A stretch of 18,689 bases of DNA, taken from UHGV virus genome UHGV-2027706. One strand, written 5' to 3'. The notes under the pieces were generated by a model. The model worked only from the letters and a program-made list of their open reading frames with translations. It had not been told where the DNA came from and did no database searches. This stretch comes from a virus. Shown in pieces: positions 4,580-10,642 of the stretch. A program made the position numbers and the translations under genes. Every line of letters begins with the position of its first letter. Positions within the stretch are counted from its first letter, which is position 1.

Positions 4580-4963
4580 TTAGAAGGGAATTGAATCGTC
4601 GTATTCAGGAAGATTTTGATGATTGTTACTTTGTTGCTGTTGGCTGTTTCCTGAAGTTGCAAATCCAATCTTTGCATTCAGTAATTCAAGAGTGATTGAT
4701 TGACCATTTTGCCCCTGATAAACATCAACCCTGATGTTTTCTCCGGTAATTTCCACAATTCCACCTTCAACCAGAACGCTACGATAGTAATCCGCTTGCG
4801 CTCCCGGCTTGGCAAATACAACGGCGCTGTAGTTTGTCCATTCTTTCTTTTTTGTCTGGCGATCGTAATACTGAACGCCAGCACGGATGTTGAATCCGAT
4901 ATTTTCCCCGGCCTGAAACTCTCTTGCGGGTTTGTTTAGTCTTACTGTAATCGAATGTGCCAT
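4580..4963 (-). CDS. ssb: Phage single-stranded DNA-binding protein-like (127 aa)
   Basis: C-terminal Gln-rich linker ending in acidic tail EYDDSIPF (the SSB DDIPF-type tail); OB-fold-like pattern W..Y.AVVFAK...LVEGG.VEITG. ATG at 4961-4963 overlaps the Erf stop (TAATG). Confidence 0.7.
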   Translation of the reverse strand: MAHSITVRLNKPAREFQAGENIGFNIRAGVQYYDRQTKKKEWTNYSAVVFAKPGAQADYYRSVLVEGGIVEITGENIRVDVYQGQNGQSITLELLNAKIGFATSGNSQQQQSNNHQNLPEYDDSIPF

Positions 4964-5568
4964 TAAGCAGTTGCCCCTTCTAATTCGTCTCGTCTGATGT
5001 TGTAAACGTCCTGCGCTTTGTGCTGCTCCGGCGTCCCTTCGAGCATCTTCCACGCTTTGGCGAACGCCTGTTTAAGCTCTTCTACGGTGTTTTTCTGCAT
5101 TGCTGCGTCAGTGAATGCTTTTAGAACCTGTTCAGGTGTAAGTGATGGTTTTGATTGCTTTGCTGCTGCGTTCTGCTGATGTTTATGCTCGTCTGTATCT
5201 GCATCTTTCGCATCATCAATGCCGAACAAACCATTGAGGCAATACTTGCGCGCATAAGAACTTGTAGCTCCAGTAACTTGTGCAGAATCCATTCCTTTCT
5301 TGCTTTCTTCCTCTCTTGCGAGAGCGGTTGCCGTATGGCGGTTTTCGCCATCGGTAATAGTTGCCGTGGCTTTCACATAATACCGATCACCAATCAACAC
5401 AACTTCATCGCTGATTGATAAAAACAGGCCATTCAGTAACGGCTTAACGCCTTCAAGAATGTCTTCGCAGCTTCTGTATTTATATTTACCGAATGAGTTG
5501 TACTGATTCTTTGGCGCGTTCAGATTCTCCTGAATAGCTGCCAGTCTTGCATAAAATTCTTTGCTCAT
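4963..5568 (-). CDS. erf: Erf-family single-strand annealing protein (201 aa from ATG 5568)
   Basis: N-terminal FYARLAAIQENL...YKYRSCEDILEGVKPLL resembles the ERF (P22 Erf) family motif from memory; sits in the bet position next to the SSB. The only in-frame ATG is at 5566-5568 (track start 5598 is a TTG). Confidence 0.7.
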   Translation of the reverse strand: MSKEFYARLAAIQENLNAPKNQYNSFGKYKYRSCEDILEGVKPLLNGLFLSISDEVVLIGDRYYVKATATITDGENRHTATALAREEESKKGMDSAQVTGATSSYARKYCLNGLFGIDDAKDADTDEHKHQQNAAAKQSKPSLTPEQVLKAFTDAAMQKNTVEELKQAFAKAWKMLEGTPEQHKAQDVYNIRRDELEGATA

Positions 5569-5657
5569 ATGTTTGTTCTCAGAATGGACATGGCCCAAGG
5601 AAATAACGCTGATTTAATACTTCAGTCTTTGCCGCATTTAAAAATACGCGAACACCT

Positions 5658-5828: not shown

Positions 5829-5977
5829 TTCCTGCGATACCACGGAAGGTTGATAGCTGATTTCATCGCTTTATTTGCTTCAAGCCACATTTTGGAATCA
5901 CCAATAAATCTGGCTATTACTGCTTTGTTTTGTGCTGCACGAAGCATCTGGTGATTGATGGCTATTTCATTGCGCAT
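5825..5977 (-). CDS. kil: Kil-like small protein (50 aa; not in the ORF track, below its length cutoff)
   Basis: Translated by hand: MRNEIAINHQMLRAAQNKAVIARFIGDSKMWLEANKAMKSAINLPWYRRK; the IARFIGDSKM core resembles lambda Kil as I recall it; position between erf and cIII fits. Confidence 0.45.
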   Translation of the reverse strand: MRNEIAINHQMLRAAQNKAVIARFIGDSKMWLEANKAMKSAINLPWYRRK

Positions 5978-6093
5978 AATAAGACCTCAACTCTTTTCCA
6001 TCCGTCACGTAATTTACGGGTGATTCGTTCAAGTAAAGATTCATTTAGTTGGAAGGCACCCATGCGAGCGCCTCCCGCGATTGCGTAAATCAT
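5962..6093 (-). CDS. cIII: cIII-like protein (43 aa; not in the ORF track)
   Basis: Translated by hand: MIYAIAGGARMGAFQLNESLLERITRKLRDGWKRVEVLLCAMK; the SLLERITRKLRDGWKR core matches lambda CIII from memory; SD AAGGA 7 nt upstream of ATG 6091-6093. Confidence 0.6.
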   Translation of the reverse strand: MIYAIAGGARMGAFQLNESLLERITRKLRDGWKRVEVLLCAMK

Positions 6094-6117: not shown

Positions 6118-6660
6118 TTAGTAGGTTATTTTTGTTGCGAATACTTCGCCTTTTACGATGGCTGTTATGATATTTTTAGCAACATCTTCTGATGCGCCAA
6201 CCTTGATAAGGTCAGCAAGTATTTTGTTATTTACTTCTTTCCGGTGAGCTTTATCCTTTGCTCTACGCTCTTCTTCTTCCTTGATTCTTTTTTCTTCTGC
6301 TATTCTGGCTTGCTCTTTTGCTTCAGCCTCGCGCCGGATTCGTTCAGTCTCCTCCTGTGCTTTTCGGCGTTCTGCTTCAATTGCCGCCTGCTTTTCTCTT
6401 TCAGCTCGTTCTGCTGCCTCTTTTGCTTCGCGCTGTGCTCGTTGCTCGGCTTCAATGCGTTCACGCTCTGCACGTTCCGCTGCGGCCTTAGCTTCTGCTT
6501 CTCGCCTTGCTGCTGCTTCAATTTCGGCTTTTGCCTTTGCTTCGGCTTCTGCTCTGGCTTTCTCTTCAGCTTCTCTTTTTAAGCGTTCTTCATGCTCTCG
6601 CTTTTCCTGCTCCGCTTTGAGTCTTGCCTCTTCTCTTTGGCGGTCAAATTCGCGATCCAT
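6118..6660 (-). CDS. E/A/R/K-rich charged-helix protein segment (about 180 aa); probably the C-terminal part of one gene with 6669..7085
   Basis: About 140 residues of low-complexity REAEEKARAEAEAKAKAEIEAAARREAEAKAAAERAERER repeats ending in a small globular tail (ILADLIKVGASEDVAKNIITAIVKGEVFATKITY); the same reading frame stays open and protein-like up to 6795. Confidence 0.55.
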   Translation of the reverse strand: MDREFDRQREEARLKAEQEKREHEERLKREAEEKARAEAEAKAKAEIEAAARREAEAKAAAERAERERIEAEQRAQREAKEAAERAEREKQAAIEAERRKAQEETERIRREAEAKEQARIAEEKRIKEEEERRAKDKAHRKEVNNKILADLIKVGASEDVAKNIITAIVKGEVFATKITY

Positions 6661-6668
6661 CAAAATCG

Positions 6669-7085
6669 CTATTTCATGGTCAGACTCAATTTGCTTTGCG
6701 AGAGCTTCAGCTGCTGCCTTAGCTTCTTCTTCGGCTTTAATCCGCGCCTGTTCCTCCTCATAATCAGTAAGAGGCTGGCGAGCCTTGCTTTCAGTTCATC
6801 AAGGCGATCGCGCACTGTCTTGCGGTTGGCATCAATTAGCTTTGGAATTTCCTTCAGTTCAGCAACAAGGTCTTTGCCAAGACCATCGAGATATGTTTTC
6901 GTCTGCGCAACTTTATACGCCAGAGAAGCGATCTCCTTTCTGCCCTTTGCCGTTGTGATATCAGGCACAAAGGACATAACTTCACGTTCAACCTTTTGGA
7001 GAATTTCTTCAATCTGGTCGGCAGACTGAAATACAGTCATTGCATTTGCTTTTTCAATAACAACTAAATCTGTTACTTCACTCAT
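6669..7085 (-). CDS. Hypothetical protein, N-terminal segment (138-aa ORF); last 35-40 residues look out of frame
   Basis: SD GGAGG 6 nt upstream of ATG 7083-7085; N-terminal 100 aa protein-like, tail RLASLLLIMRRNRRGLKPKKKLRQQLKLSQSKLSLTMK is off-frame-like while the other frame over the same DNA reads TDYEEEQARIKAEEEAKAAAEALAKQIE. Confidence 0.5.
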   Translation of the reverse strand: MSEVTDLVVIEKANAMTVFQSADQIEEILQKVEREVMSFVPDITTAKGRKEIASLAYKVAQTKTYLDGLGKDLVAELKEIPKLIDANRKTVRDRLDELKARLASLLLIMRRNRRGLKPKKKLRQQLKLSQSKLSLTMK

Positions 7086-7219: not shown

Positions 7220-7378
7220 TTATTCGCATCGCATGACAACATCAAATTTTTCGAGATTACTTTGTCGCAACAATCCTTCTTCGACGCGGTCAGCTTTTCT
7301 ATAATTATCAAATTCGAAATGTTTAATTACTTCTTTCGTTTCTCGCTCTATAACTTCAACGATGTATTTCTTATTCAT
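7220..7378 (-). CDS. Small hypothetical protein (52 aa; not in the ORF track)
   Basis: Translated by hand: MNKKYIVEVIERETKEVIKHFEFDNYRKADRVEEGLLRQSNLEKFDVVMRCE; ATG overlaps the stop of the upstream gene (TAATG). Confidence 0.4.
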   Translation of the reverse strand: MNKKYIVEVIERETKEVIKHFEFDNYRKADRVEEGLLRQSNLEKFDVVMRCE

Positions 7379-7647
7379 TACTCATCACCTATGGCTTTTT
7401 TGATAGCTTCGCGAGCCTTATTAACAGCTCCATACCATTCTGGATATGTTGTCGTTGTTCTATTTTCGGCTTGCTTAAGTAATAACTGAAGTGCTTCAAG
7501 TAAATCCGGTGCAGCCATAGCTAATCTTCCATTTGCTACGGCCTCTTCTGTTTCTTTACCGGATAGGGCCATTCCCGGGTGTGAAAATAAAATTAAGCCT
7601 GCAAAATTGGCTTCTCGCCAATTTTTCCTAGTACCTTTAAATTCCAT
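7378..7647 (-). CDS. Hypothetical early protein (89 aa)
   Basis: ORF on the operon strand with ATG at 7645-7647; weak SD; no recognisable motif. Confidence 0.5.
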   Translation of the reverse strand: MEFKGTRKNWREANFAGLILFSHPGMALSGKETEEAVANGRLAMAAPDLLEALQLLLKQAENRTTTTYPEWYGAVNKAREAIKKAIGDE

Positions 7648-7686: not shown

Positions 7687-7887
7687 TTAGGCAGCCTTGT
7701 TGTTCTGTTTACCAAGTTCTCTGGCAATCATTGCCGTCGTTCGTATTGCCCATTTATCGACATATTTCCCATCTTCCATTACAGGAAACATTTCTTCAGG
7801 CTTAACCATGCATTCCGATTGCAGCTTGCATCCATTGCATCGCTTGAATTGTCCACACCATTGATTTGTATCAATAGTCGTAGTCAT
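7687..7887 (-). CDS. ral: Ral-like restriction-alleviation protein (66 aa)
   Basis: Size (66 aa) and position just promoter-distal of N as in lambda; sequence MTTTIDTNQWCGQFKRCNGCKLQSEC resembles my recollection of lambda Ral. Unverified. Confidence 0.45.
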   Translation of the reverse strand: MTTTIDTNQWCGQFKRCNGCKLQSECMVKPEEMFPVMEDGKYVDKWAIRTTAMIARELGKQNNKAA

Positions 7888-7965: not shown

Positions 7966-8301
7966 TCAAATAAGTGGTTTGCTGCCTAATTTCATTTTCT
8001 GGCGACCAACACAAGTCACACCCATTTCACTGCGTGGCTTGCGGTAGTAAATACGGTTCTGTTTACTCTCGACTTCTTCTGCCTTCTTGCAGCGAAGGCT
8101 TCCGAGTGATATTGCTTTTTCAGAAAGGCTTAAACGCTTTCTCGGGGCTTCCTGAACAGGTTCCTCACTGTCTGTACTGAAGATCGAATCGATGATGTTG
8201 CAGATGGCATCACGCTCGATAGCCAGCTTTCTGCGCCGCTCATGACGGCGAGTTTTGGCATTTCCTGCAAATGTTGATTTCCCGTACACGATTACCGTCA
8301 T
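7966..8301 (-). CDS. N: Antitermination protein N, P22 gene-24 type (111 aa from ATG 8301)
   Basis: Arginine-rich motif GNAKTRRHERRRKLAIER (the P22 N boxB-binding peptide as I recall it) and a C-terminus RIYYRKPRSEMGVTCVGRQKMKLGSKPLI resembling lambda N; SD GAGGA upstream of ATG 8299-8301; cognate nutL immediately upstream. Confidence 0.85.
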   Translation of the reverse strand: MTVIVYGKSTFAGNAKTRRHERRRKLAIERDAICNIIDSIFSTDSEEPVQEAPRKRLSLSEKAISLGSLRCKKAEEVESKQNRIYYRKPRSEMGVTCVGRQKMKLGSKPLI

Positions 8302-8420
8302 GATATTTTCCTCATGTGAAATGGCTTTGGTGGTGATGCGCCAGATGCTGATCTTCTGGTTGCTGTCGTTGCAGCTGCAATTCACATCACCGCCAAACCC
8401 ATCTCGTTTGGTATCTGTTT

Positions 8421-8455
8421 GCGCTTTGTCAGCGCCCCATCGAAGTTAAAGAGCC
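8421..8455 (-). promoter_or_regulatory. nutL (boxA plus boxB)
   Basis: Minus strand reads GGCTCTTTAAC (boxA-like, plus 8445-8455) followed by GCGCTGACAAAGCGC (plus 8421-8435), which matches the P22 boxB hairpin from memory. Confidence 0.7.
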
Positions 8456-8500
8456 TGCCAATCTGTTCCGTTTGGCTTCCAGCGTCCTGCTGATGTGATG

Positions 8501-8539
8501 ATAATGAACCAATAGTTCGATATTATCAAGAACTATTGG
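8501..8539 (-). promoter_or_regulatory. Candidate pL core with overlapping palindromic operator
   Basis: Minus strand TTGATA (rc of 8524-8529), 17 nt, CATTAT (rc of 8501-8506), about 40 nt upstream of nutL; overlapped by the perfect palindrome CCAATAGTTC-N11-GAACTATTGG (8509-8539). Confidence 0.4.
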
Positions 8540-8710
8540 TACGAAATTTTTGTGATTTATTAATGCAGCGAGATATGATTTTGATATATAAGGAAATTTA
8601 TTTTTGTAAATGCTGCAGATTGGTCTGTAGTTGGAGGGAGTATTGCTGGTGAGTTGGTTCGCGGTTTACCACATTTGCGGCTATTAAATATGGGAGGGCG
8701 AACGTGAGGC

Positions 8711-8738
8711 AAAGAAAACCCGGCGCTGAGGCCGGGTT
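8711..8738 (-). terminator. Putative intrinsic terminator ending the cI / protease-like transcription unit
   Basis: AACCCGGC-gctgag-GCCGGGTT 8-bp stem (8717-8738) followed on the minus strand by UUUUCUUU; lies 13 nt past the stop at 8751-8753. Confidence 0.55.
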
Positions 8739-8750
8739 GTGAGGAATTAA

Positions 8751-8936
8751 TTACAGAGCAAAGAGATCATGCATTAGGTTGCTGTTCATCTGGTGGTTGA
8801 ATTGATACGGCTCCAATTCCTTCTTGATCTCGTTCAGGTGTTGTTCCGCTTTTTTTGCCAGATCGTGACCTTCTTGGATCTGGCTTTCCAACATCTTGTT
8901 GAGAATTTCCATCTCCGGTTGCAGATTCTTCGGCAT
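8751..8936 (-). CDS. Small helical protein (61 aa), out of frame inside the 3' end of the protease-like ORF
   Basis: ATG at 8934-8936 with SD AGAGGA about 9 nt upstream; product MPKNLQPEMEILNKMLESQIQEGHDLAKKAEQHLNEIKKELEPYQFNHQMNSNLMHDLFAL is protein-like and amphipathic. Confidence 0.4.
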   Translation of the reverse strand: MPKNLQPEMEILNKMLESQIQEGHDLAKKAEQHLNEIKKELEPYQFNHQMNSNLMHDLFAL

Positions 8937-9768
8937 TAGCTTTTTCCTCTTTTTGTAGATACGTTGTACAATCAATAACCCTCGGCTTTCCAAATGTTGG
9001 AATGTCACCATTATGAATTTTGTCACAGAAAAGATTATAGAGTATTTCTGTTATACCTTTAGGATGCTCAACACACTTGAAAAGTTCCTTGGCTTCTTTT
9101 CTGTCGATAACAAATCCATGTGAAGGATATGAGGCTATTAGTTTGCCTAACGCCCCTTCTTTTAGGCTGCTTGGTTTGTCTGCTAATCGTTGGCCATAAG
9201 TGATAGCTATACTCATTGCGCGCTGATGTTCACCAAGCTTTATTGGATCTATCTGTGCGGCCATAGGTGCTATCAACGCTTCTGTAAGTCTGGTCGCGAT
9301 ATCAGCAGACATTTTGGTACTTATCTGATTTTCGTATCTTATCTTAACAAGGTGTGAGTTAAACGCTGAAATAGAGCGTTCCTTTAGAGCATCAAGAGCT
9401 GTCATGATAGCTAAACCAGAACTCATCTCACCTATTTCATCGTTTTTTTTCAGTTGGATATCTAATGGCCCAAGCTCCCCCATGTCACCAATAACAAGTT
9501 TATTGGCTGCTATAGCTATTAGTGTACCAGCACTTTTGCATGGTCCAACAACTAAAAGTGTTACCGTTTCATAATGGTGCTGTAGAGCTCTACCTATACG
9601 ATAACCTGCATTTGGATCACCGCCATAAGTAGCAACACAGAAGATAACATTCTCTTTTAATCCATGTTGTGACTTACGTTTCTTGATTTCATTGGTGAGA
9701 TCAAGATAACCATCACGATGAATATCGCCTGTATACACATAAACATCATGATTTTCAATAGAATTCAT
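8767..9768 (-). CDS. ClpP/SppA-fold (SDH / S49-like) putative serine peptidase (333 aa) at the rexAB-equivalent locus
   Basis: ATG at 9766-9768 with SD GGAG 8 nt upstream; N-terminal half has the ClpP-fold signature VTLLVVGPCKSAGTLIAIAANKLVIGDMGELGPLDIQL (compare ClpP GQAASMGAFLLAAG); the last 58 residues are low-complexity and overlap the 61-aa ORF. Confidence 0.7.
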   Translation of the reverse strand: MNSIENHDVYVYTGDIHRDGYLDLTNEIKKRKSQHGLKENVIFCVATYGGDPNAGYRIGRALQHHYETVTLLVVGPCKSAGTLIAIAANKLVIGDMGELGPLDIQLKKNDEIGEMSSGLAIMTALDALKERSISAFNSHLVKIRYENQISTKMSADIATRLTEALIAPMAAQIDPIKLGEHQRAMSIAITYGQRLADKPSSLKEGALGKLIASYPSHGFVIDRKEAKELFKCVEHPKGITEILYNLFCDKIHNGDIPTFGKPRVIDCTTYLQKEEKANAEESATGDGNSQQDVGKPDPRRSRSGKKSGTTPERDQEGIGAVSIQPPDEQQPNA

Positions 9769-9934
9769 TCGTTAAACTCCCTGCTGTGGTTACGATGAAT
9801 GTATTCATGTTGAAGCTAAGCCATAGCGGCTTGTCATCATCACCAATCTGGCGGAATTGACTGTTCATAAATCACAATTGGACTCACCCAAACGTCTCTT
9901 CAGGCCACTGGTTACCAGCTATGTGACGATGAAG

Positions 9935-10642
9935 TCACGAACTTTTCAGCCACTCCCTTGCCTCGATGTCATCCAGATGGCGAGATTGCTTCAGAATACC
10001 AGCCACATACTCCACCTTTGCTACTTGATGATAAGGCAACGTTATTGGCCTGTGGTCCTGGTTGATGCTTGTAAATTGGTATTCTCCGTCTCTGTCATAG
10101 CCAAGAACTTTGATCATGTTGTGTCCTTCAACAGTTCTGACAAACACCTCATCACCCGGGAATACTTTGGTGTTAGGCTCAATGAGTACATATTCTCCTG
10201 ATTTTATTCTGGGCCACATGCTGTCTCCTTTCACACGAAGACCAAAGGCATCTGGATCATCGCTATAAATCTTGAGCCACCCATCGCGCTCTTCGGTCAT
10301 CTCGATGGCACCATCAACACCAAGAATTGCCTCACCAACCACGCGCACTAACCCTTTTTTTAATTTGCCAACAAATGAAAGAGTATCTTCATCATTCGCT
10401 CCATTTAACGAAGTGCCGTGCTGAAGCCAAACAACATCAACGTTTAGAAATTTCGCAAGCGCATTCATTTTTTCCTGACGCGGTAAAGACTCAGCATTAA
10501 ACCATTTGCTAACGCCTTTGGACGAAAGAGAAAGGGCACGGGCTATGGCCATCCCCCTACCATGTTCATCAAGACCAGCTTCTTTACAGGCTTGCGCTAG
10601 CCGCTGGGCGAATTCTTTGCGCACTTTTTCATTCTGAACCAT
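9935..10642 (-). CDS. cI: CI-type prophage repressor (235 aa; HTH plus LexA-like S24 autopeptidase domain)
   Basis: N-terminal HTH (GMAIARALSLSSKGVSKW) and C-terminal S24 domain with GDSMWP serine motif; divergent from cro across a short operator interval; ATG at 10640-10642. Confidence 0.9.
   Translation of the reverse strand: MVQNEKVRKEFAQRLAQACKEAGLDEHGRGMAIARALSLSSKGVSKWFNAESLPRQEKMNALAKFLNVDVVWLQHGTSLNGANDEDTLSFVGKLKKGLVRVVGEAILGVDGAIEMTEERDGWLKIYSDDPDAFGLRVKGDSMWPRIKSGEYVLIEPNTKVFPGDEVFVRTVEGHNMIKVLGYDRDGEYQFTSINQDHRPITLPYHQVAKVEYVAGILKQSRHLDDIEAREWLKSS

Follow-up and report, generated by a model that had tools for sequence, protein, structure and literature searches.

The slot between the repressor gene cI and the antitermination gene N of lambdoid prophages is a recognized hotspot of mosaic diversity, and it houses the abortive-infection systems rexAB in phage lambda and bstA in Salmonella phage BTP1 (PMC8585504). 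The DNA analyzed here is a stretch of 18,689 nucleotides (nt) from the virus genome UHGV-2027706, referred to as the window, and in the corresponding slot on its minus strand we find a gene for a predicted ClpP-fold serine protease of 333 amino acids (aa) with a second gene, of 61 aa, embedded in the +1 frame at its 3′ end. A pair of similar composition appears in DefenseFinder, which lists 'FS_HP_SDH_sah', a hypothetical protein with an SDH_sah protease of the same Pfam family (PF01972, now SDH_protease). That pair reportedly comes from phage-inducible chromosomal islands (PICIs); its experimental validation is said to be the work of Fillol-Salom et al. in 2022. The classic protease-based exclusion of a superinfecting phage is by Lit of prophage e14. 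An earlier reading of the window from its letters only (the sequence-only reading) held that no protease-based exclusion system had been described at this locus, which is too strong given the FS_HP_SDH_sah entry and the case of Lit. We propose that the two genes in the window form an accessory cassette of temperate phages, mobile and self-contained, whose two proteins most likely protect the lysogen against other phages, a reading to which we assign a probability of about 0.5. The family name of the protease and a probable defense relative were already known. New are the presence of the cassette in the rexAB slot and the embedded partner gene, which is conserved and almost unannotated.

The evidence that the nested open reading frame (ORF) encodes a protein comes from 17 non-identical homologs with DNA, drawn from E. 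coli, Klebsiella, other enterobacteria (IMG/VR contigs), and one Aeromonadaceae genome, with protease cores 68–100% identical. In 17 of 17, a +1 ORF of 60–61 codons starts at an aligned ATG and ends 7–28 nt past the protease stop. The peptides, of which the window encodes MPKNLQPEMEILNKMLESQIQEGHDLAKKAEQHLNEIKKELEPYQFNHQMNSNLMHDLFAL, align nearly gap-free down to ~32% identity and share the invariant residues E8, Q19, L26, L41, and Y44, as well as an L-E-P-Y-Q motif. A GAGGA, GGGGA, or AAGGA sequence lies 8–13 nt 5′ of the ATG in 13 of the 17 lineages while the surrounding bases vary, and in three further lineages GGAG adjoins the ATG. In the protease core, differences read in the frame of the protease (frame 0) fall at codon positions 1, 2, and 3 in proportions of 22, 10, and 67%, and the ratio of nonsynonymous to synonymous substitution rates (dN/dS) is 0.02–0.04. 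The overlap read in frame 0 gives proportions of 43, 31, and 25%, with dN/dS values of 1.14, 1.25, and 1.29 in three clades, whereas the +1 frame gives 31, 25, and 43%, with values of 0.12, 0.12, and 0.23. Substitutions in the overlap peak at the third position of +1 codons, which takes 57% of them in the closest clade, and are least frequent at position 3 of frame 0. Therefore, across ~170 nt it is the sequence of the small protein that is conserved and not that of the protease tail. On this comparative evidence the nested ORF is a real gene, well supported beyond chance, and the last ~60 residues of the protease are without sequence constraint, with the DNA there selected for the other frame. 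The 61-aa ORF was already part of the sequence-only reading, and the evidence from selection, length, and start site goes beyond what could be known from one sequence.

Compositional bias offers another explanation: the protease would act alone, and the nested ORF would be a by-product of its hydrophilic tail. Where T is scarce at codon position 2, as in such a tail, the +1 frame automatically lacks stop codons, and 69 of 78 loci keep 50 or more codons of it open, compared with 9 for the +2 frame. Because the hydrophilic tail removes +1 stops automatically, the openness in these 78 loci was not counted toward coding. However, composition leaves unexplained the conserved ATG and Shine-Dalgarno (SD) sequence, the fixed length of 60–61 aa, the third-position periodicity of the +1 frame with a dN/dS of 0.12 against values above 1, and the conserved peptide motifs in two divergent clades, and we consider a by-product very improbable. 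A programmed frameshift that joins the protease core to the helix encoded by the nested gene is also disfavored, as the SD and ATG are conserved and the open +1 stretch 5′ of the ATG is short and variable (99 codons down to 69).

The small protein has a mass of 7.3 kDa and an isoelectric point of 5.4, and is predicted to be soluble and amphipathic, with hydrophobic residues at the 3–4 spacing of heptads and no transmembrane segment. Its structural model is one continuous helix with a predicted local distance difference test (pLDDT) score of 84, which exceeds 95 at residues 10–40 and drops past the LEPYQ motif. The protein matches no family in Pfam, PHROG, NCBIfam, or PADLOC. Protein databases hold 15 clusters of it among 5.8 billion, at lengths of 55–61 aa and all unnamed or 'hypothetical', and a set of 1.84 billion representatives holds 3–4. 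Gene callers miss the small gene because it is nested; now and then it is called, as a hypothetical protein of 59–61 aa.

Although the protease tail is free in sequence, its reading frame is kept open. When the peptide sequence was held fixed, synonymous codons were redrawn, and frame-0 stops were scored, frame 0 was free of stops with a probability of about 7e-4 per sequence using the codon usage of the gene's core, and of about 0.08 when the ORF's own codons were permuted. Frame 0 is nevertheless open in 17 of 17 lineages. Therefore, the protease must read through nearly the whole of the small gene. Frame 0 is selected there only for remaining open and hydrophilic, with the tail a disordered extension of free sequence.

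The two-gene architecture extends beyond the enterobacterial group. In 10 homologs from Burkholderiales (Polaromonas, Rhodoferax, Variovorax, Acidovorax, Rubrivivax, Burkholderia, and others), a +1 ORF of 56–67 aa overlaps 110–200 nt of the 3′ end of the protease gene, preceded by AGGAG or GGAG in eight and by GGGG in one more. The Burkholderiales peptides have their own motif, HQMPxxVQxALRQAS, and look unrelated to the enterobacterial peptide, and a third group of homologs has +1 peptides with the motif QxQMxKAxxFAxM. When 52 pairs of distant homologs are compared, frame-0 position 3 takes 64% of the differences in the core and 31% over the final 60 codons, a drop present in each of the 52 pairs. 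In 45 of these pairs, the final codons differ more often at position 1 than at position 3. A neutral tail would be expected to give 33/33/33. These patterns indicate that the architecture is old, and outside the two clades analyzed in detail the evidence for dual coding is suggestive rather than decisive. The distribution across phyla is patchy. In a Gilliamella sp. locus (L025, about 5833–6006), the small +1 ORF lies mostly 3′ of a shorter protease gene, with an overlap of ~46 nt, showing that the degree of nesting varies across the family.

The protease itself bears out the ClpP/SppA-type fold of the sequence-only reading, which had quoted the motif VVGPCKSAGTLIAIAANKLVIGDMGELGPLD, corresponding to residues 73–103, and proposed the serine of KSAG, which indeed lies at the nucleophile position. 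A predicted ClpP/crotonase-type core and helical domain span aa ~1–270, with residues 118–270 forming an all-helical second domain, and aa 283–333 are predicted to be a disordered tail. Ser79 of CKSAGT aligns with the serine of AASMGT in ClpP and of AASAGT in 1510-N, and an oxyanion-type motif T47-Y-G-G50 precedes it. Across 196 non-identical family members, the residues kept in at least 97% are T47xG49G50; C77-K78-S79-x-G81-T82; E98-L-G-P-L-D103-x-Q105; S117; R183; Y191-G192; and Y214-P-x-H217-x-x-V-I-D222-x-x-E225. T47xG49G50 and S79 are kept in at least 99%, and Lys108 is not among the residues above the 97% cut-off. With Ser79, Asp103, and His217 as the candidate catalytic residues, the order would be Ser-Asp-His, from which the SDH family takes its name. 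One homologous copy, L117 (IMG/VR contig 2907888185_000007), has a premature stop at codon 142 and is an apparent pseudogene.

Assignment of the protease to a family was approached with several profile collections. The sequence-only reading had anticipated matches to Peptidase_S49, SDH_sah, or ClpP-like profiles, and of these a sub-threshold SDH_protease match and ClpP-like matches were obtained, with no Pfam match to S49. The SDH family gives the best profile match. The NfeD1b_N and CLP_protease profiles match with E values of about 1e-3, and the profile matches are weak and local, covering residues ~40–110. A sequence-profile search of the PDB gave only marginal ClpP and 1510-N matches. The NCBIfam model NF047768 (Clp_like_SDH) scores 36.7 bits, compared with its equivalog cut-off of 250 bits, while most homologs carry a precomputed PF01972 match and the RefSeq name of the protease is 'SDH family Clp fold serine proteinase'. 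PHROG 21683, a family without an assigned function, matches across the full length. We place the protease in a separate subfamily, PHROG 21683, whose proteins have ~330 aa, a helical domain, and a tail. The Ser-Lys dyad and the membrane anchoring of SppA and peptidase S49 were not found, and the protease lacks both a signal peptide and an N-terminal membrane anchor. A single 19-residue window is hydrophobic, aa 69–87, and it corresponds to the buried core strand and helix around Ser79. No paper describing this protease was found within the literature collection searched.

The minus strand of 7966–10642 has the layout of a lambdoid immunity region (Table 1). As the sequence-only reading stated, the 333-aa ORF has its own SD and occupies the position of rexAB in lambda, and an identical protein is also encoded directly behind an authentic lambda-immunity cI. 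The gap between cI and the protease gene is 166 nt, and no terminator is predicted between them. The hairpin that had been described as a downstream terminator of the gene, at 8711–8738, is present, but comparison of flanks assigns it to the phage backbone and not to the cargo: the segment 8386–8739, terminator included, is common to lambdoid phages with other cargo in the slot.

Table 1. Features of the immunity region and cassette in the window.
Feature	Position	Strand	Basis or remark
cI repressor gene	9935-10642	minus	HTH_3 and Peptidase_S24 domains; H-19B-type immunity
Lambda cI 3′-end remnant (..AGNQWPEETFG*)	9884-9919	minus	directly past the resident cI stop
Cassette leader, non-coding	9769-9883	minus	common to copies behind lambda-type and H-19B-type cI
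SD of protease gene, GGGAG	9777-9781	minus	8 nt 5′ of ATG; direct sequence reading
Protease gene, 333 aa	8767-9768	minus	ORF read directly
Candidate catalytic Ser79	9532-9534	minus	nucleophile alignment
Candidate catalytic Asp103	9460-9462	minus	100% conservation only
Candidate catalytic His217	9118-9120	minus	100% conservation only
SD of small gene, AGAGGA	8945-8950	minus	8 nt 5′ of ATG at 8934-8936
Overlapping small gene, +1 frame, 61 aa	8751-8936	minus	stop 16 nt past protease stop
Dual-coded stretch	8767-8936	minus	protease frame 0 and small gene +1 frame
Intrinsic-terminator-like hairpin, G+C-rich then T run	8717-8738	minus	lambdoid backbone, tIMM-like position
pL-like promoter match upstream of N	8501-8529	minus	consensus scan only
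ORF with N antitermination peptide domain, left limit of slot	7966-8385	minus	PF25694, 90 bits

By the same comparison the cassette extends over ~8740–9883, ending 12 nt past the stop of the small gene. On the other side, 9884–9935 is common to phages of the H-19B immunity type, and the leader is absent from other phages with this cI. Leaders differ between clades, so that the unit conserved between clades consists of the two ORFs, from the protease start to the small-gene stop. The lambda cI remnant is the exact end of the authentic lambda cI in E. coli prophages with the same cassette, and this short joint is probably the site at which cargo is exchanged between immunity types. The identical protein is found with at least two cI types, including the true lambda cI, and with at least two N types, and the same cI allele is also found with unrelated cargo of 126 or 299 aa in the slot. 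Two such alternative cargo genes, L138:2720-3100 (126 aa) and L137:1744-2643 (299 aa), accompany the same or a closely related cI and have no Pfam or PADLOC match. Since their identity is not given by these searches, they lend no extra support to the slot as a defense hotspot, and they are further uncharacterized candidates for lysogen-expressed functions.

Outside the immunity region, the early-left arm of the prophage is ordinary lambdoid/P22-like, with Ral antirestriction (7687–7887), an ERF-family recombinase (4963–5598), and a lambda-type integrase (1–1074) on the minus strand. An AntA/AntB-type antirepressor gene (1355–1978, minus) adjoins the integrase gene. Three ORFs between ral and erf (181, 138, and 89 aa; 6118–7085 and 7378–7647, minus) have no Pfam match and lie in the early-left accessory region, which is often home to exclusion or anti-defense genes.

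Homologs of the protease gene occupy varied positions. One in Klebsiella lies behind a Rac-like repressor, one in Bartonella behind an S24 repressor, and one in a Klebsiella phage is divergent from an XRE/ImmA pair. A P2-like Burkholderia phage has its copy next to the integrase. In E. coli prophages that carry Mu-like tail genes, the homolog is found at the prophage end with an integrase and DinI as neighbors, and a further copy sits at the edge of a Malonomonas prophage. Homologs in Mannheimia and Neisseria are solitary in the chromosome. Among 41 distant homologs on viral contigs, 18 lie directly downstream of an S24 repressor. The family is carried by 49 of 5426 complete E. coli genomes, 28 of them with the window type and 21 with a 70%-identical type, and an assembly collection indexes the identical protein in 1560 blocks. 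No conserved operon partner was found among the called genes neighboring these copies. Two candidate partners were rejected: an upstream ORF of 37 codons (9755–9868, minus), which shares 14 nt with the start of the protease gene, contains a stop in another copy of the cassette (L007) and is absent from other clades, and a 71-aa hypothetical protein of Klebsiella phage ST13-OXA48phi12.4 (L001:4802-5017) is limited to one lineage and frameshifted in another locus (L115). The 71-aa ORF likewise overlaps the start of its homologous protease gene by 14 nt.

These contexts bear on what the cassette could do. As the gene often adjoins, and is co-oriented with, repressors of several types, the protease might regulate the phage's own lysis-lysogeny switch or induction, for example by acting on cI, CII, or an antirepressor, for which ImmA/ImmR or the effect of RexA on the lambda switch would be analogues. 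S24 repressors cleave themselves, however, and this possibility is weakened because a 100% identical protein serves different cI specificities and because other copies have no repressor near them and instead adjoin integrases or lie in ordinary chromosomal DNA. We regard a role in the switch as distinctly unlikely. Copies far from repressors also imply that the module must work autonomously.

Expression from a lysogeny slot, as for other morons, and the many homologs among housekeeping genes would instead fit a lysogenic-conversion factor that acts on host physiology, such as the envelope, stress, or virulence proteolysis, and is unrelated to phages. The protease lacks a signal peptide or membrane anchor and the peptide lacks a transmembrane segment, however, no conserved link to any host pathway is seen, and the family recurs in accessory slots of unrelated prophages, making conversion unlikely in our estimation. 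A role as a toxin-antitoxin-like addiction or stress module, in which the protease and a labile small partner would stabilize the prophage or island or else stop growth under stress, without being dedicated to defense against phages, seems about equally unlikely. It would be consistent with the overlap that makes the pair inseparable, with the faster evolution of the small partner (32–37% identity compared with about 70% for the protease in the most distant of the 17 homologs), with the existence of solitary chromosomal copies, and with the patchy distribution across phyla. Neither protein resembles known toxin or antitoxin families, though, and placement behind a phage repressor is typical of exclusion genes. 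Many addiction modules also prove to be abortive-infection systems, so that this explanation overlaps with protection of the lysogen.

Protection against other phages is favored because the cassette is autonomous, mobile, and patchy, and is found repeatedly in lysogen-expressed accessory slots or those at prophage ends. An anti-phage role is thus probable from position and mobility only. Several observations weigh against it. With one genome taken per species, an S24 repressor lies upstream in only 5 of 75 loci; most of these copies are solitary among ordinary genes, and a minority have restriction, GmrSD, integrase, or transposase neighbors, a modest association. The protease has no match at E ≤ 1 among the 5027 profiles of PADLOC-DB, and none of the 17 small proteins has a match there. 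The PF01972 match reaches 29.6 bits, below the gathering threshold of 31.3, and covers only residues 44–108 (65 residues). Finally, interaction of the two proteins is deduced from gene architecture only; co-transcription with cI, proteolytic activity, and anti-phage function are likewise features that we infer. A 91-aa version of the small ORF gave a single weak match to PDC-M64B (E 0.023), which did not recur.

If the cassette does protect the lysogen, it would do so by superinfection exclusion or abortive infection. Because it lies between cI and the immunity terminator, it should be co-transcribed with cI from pRM, as rexAB is in lambda. The first product would be a cytoplasmic ClpP-fold serine protease with Ser79, Asp103, and His217 as candidate catalytic residues, a helical second domain, and a disordered tail, and the second would be the small helix, translated from its own SD and ATG in the +1 frame. 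Since the small gene lies inside the DNA for the protease tail, the two genes cannot be separated by recombination. Such forced linkage is expected of an effector and its gate, which favors the helix as a regulator bound to the protease, whether as inhibitor, as antitoxin-like gate, or as adaptor for specificity. On infection the helix would be relieved or redirected, and the protease would then cleave a host or phage protein needed for phage growth.

A wider reading is possible but rather doubtful: that the protease and embedded peptide represent an unrecognized class of immune or toxin-antitoxin-like modules with two components, which would range from Enterobacteria through Burkholderiales to other groups. 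The regulator would always be encoded by the +1 frame within the disordered protease tail, with selection on both frames. In such a class, the peptide might gate a ClpP-like protease, which infection would release, and the read-through in frame 0 might set the stoichiometry or supply a required disordered tail. Many genomes would then hold an unannotated partner protein, and the classic rexAB slot would house a protease-based abortive-infection mechanism.

The cassette would account for what takes the place of rexAB in a set of E. coli prophages, and it adds a conserved protein-coding gene, one almost never called by annotation pipelines. It is also a clean example of dual coding, with one frame selected for sequence and the other only for openness. 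Because of the hidden partner, any functional test of the 'single' protease gene tests two proteins, and because two frames share the DNA, a Ser-to-Ala mutant, deletion, or truncation must be designed with both frames in mind. Should the cassette prove to be anti-phage, it would provide a tractable two-protein protease system.

Compared with RexAB and BstA, the cassette occupies the same slot 3′ of cI, ending at the immunity terminator, from which RexAB and BstA are expressed in the lysogen. Genomic position is all that is common, as Pfam, PHROG, and NCBIfam matches include no homology to RexA or RexB. RexAB consists of a DNA-binding sensor and a membrane protein and BstA is DNA-associated; neither is a protease, and neither is related to the products of the cassette in sequence or fold. 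Lit is a protease, but a zinc metalloprotease that acts alone on EF-Tu, with an unrelated fold and locus. FS_HP_SDH_sah resembles the cassette in pairing a small protein with a PF01972-family protease, a likeness by name and sub-threshold Pfam match only. In contrast to that system, the partner in the window lies almost wholly inside the protease gene and is unannotated, and the pair is carried in the immunity slot of a lambdoid prophage rather than on a PICI. The 49 E. coli genomes with the family showed no PICI-like context.

The closest structural relatives of the protease, among the ClpP/crotonase-fold peptidases of MEROPS clan SK, are ClpP, SppA (S49), and NfeD/1510-N, with which it shares the fold and a serine that follows a TxGG oxyanion motif. 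No sequence relationship is recognizable past about 60 residues, and the second domain differs in being all-helical. Whereas ClpP uses Ser-His-Asp, and SppA and NfeD use Ser-Lys, the conserved order here is Ser-Asp-His, and the protease has no membrane anchor and no ATPase partner gene nearby. NfeD, a ClpP-fold protease, is encoded next to its helical partner stomatin and cleaves the C-terminal region of that partner. In SppA of B. subtilis, the enzyme's own C-terminal peptide is bound in the active site, according to the title of the structure entry (PDB 4kwb). Both serve as analogies for a ClpP-fold protease that acts on a helical partner or on a tail. For the gene arrangement, Rz/Rz1 of lambda provides a precedent in a lambdoid phage, where a larger gene contains a small partner gene in its +1 frame and the two products work as a complex. 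Rz and Rz1 are lysis proteins (spanins), however, and Rz1 lies wholly inside an Rz gene that is constrained in sequence, whereas in the cassette the host frame is unconstrained in sequence where it overlaps the small gene.

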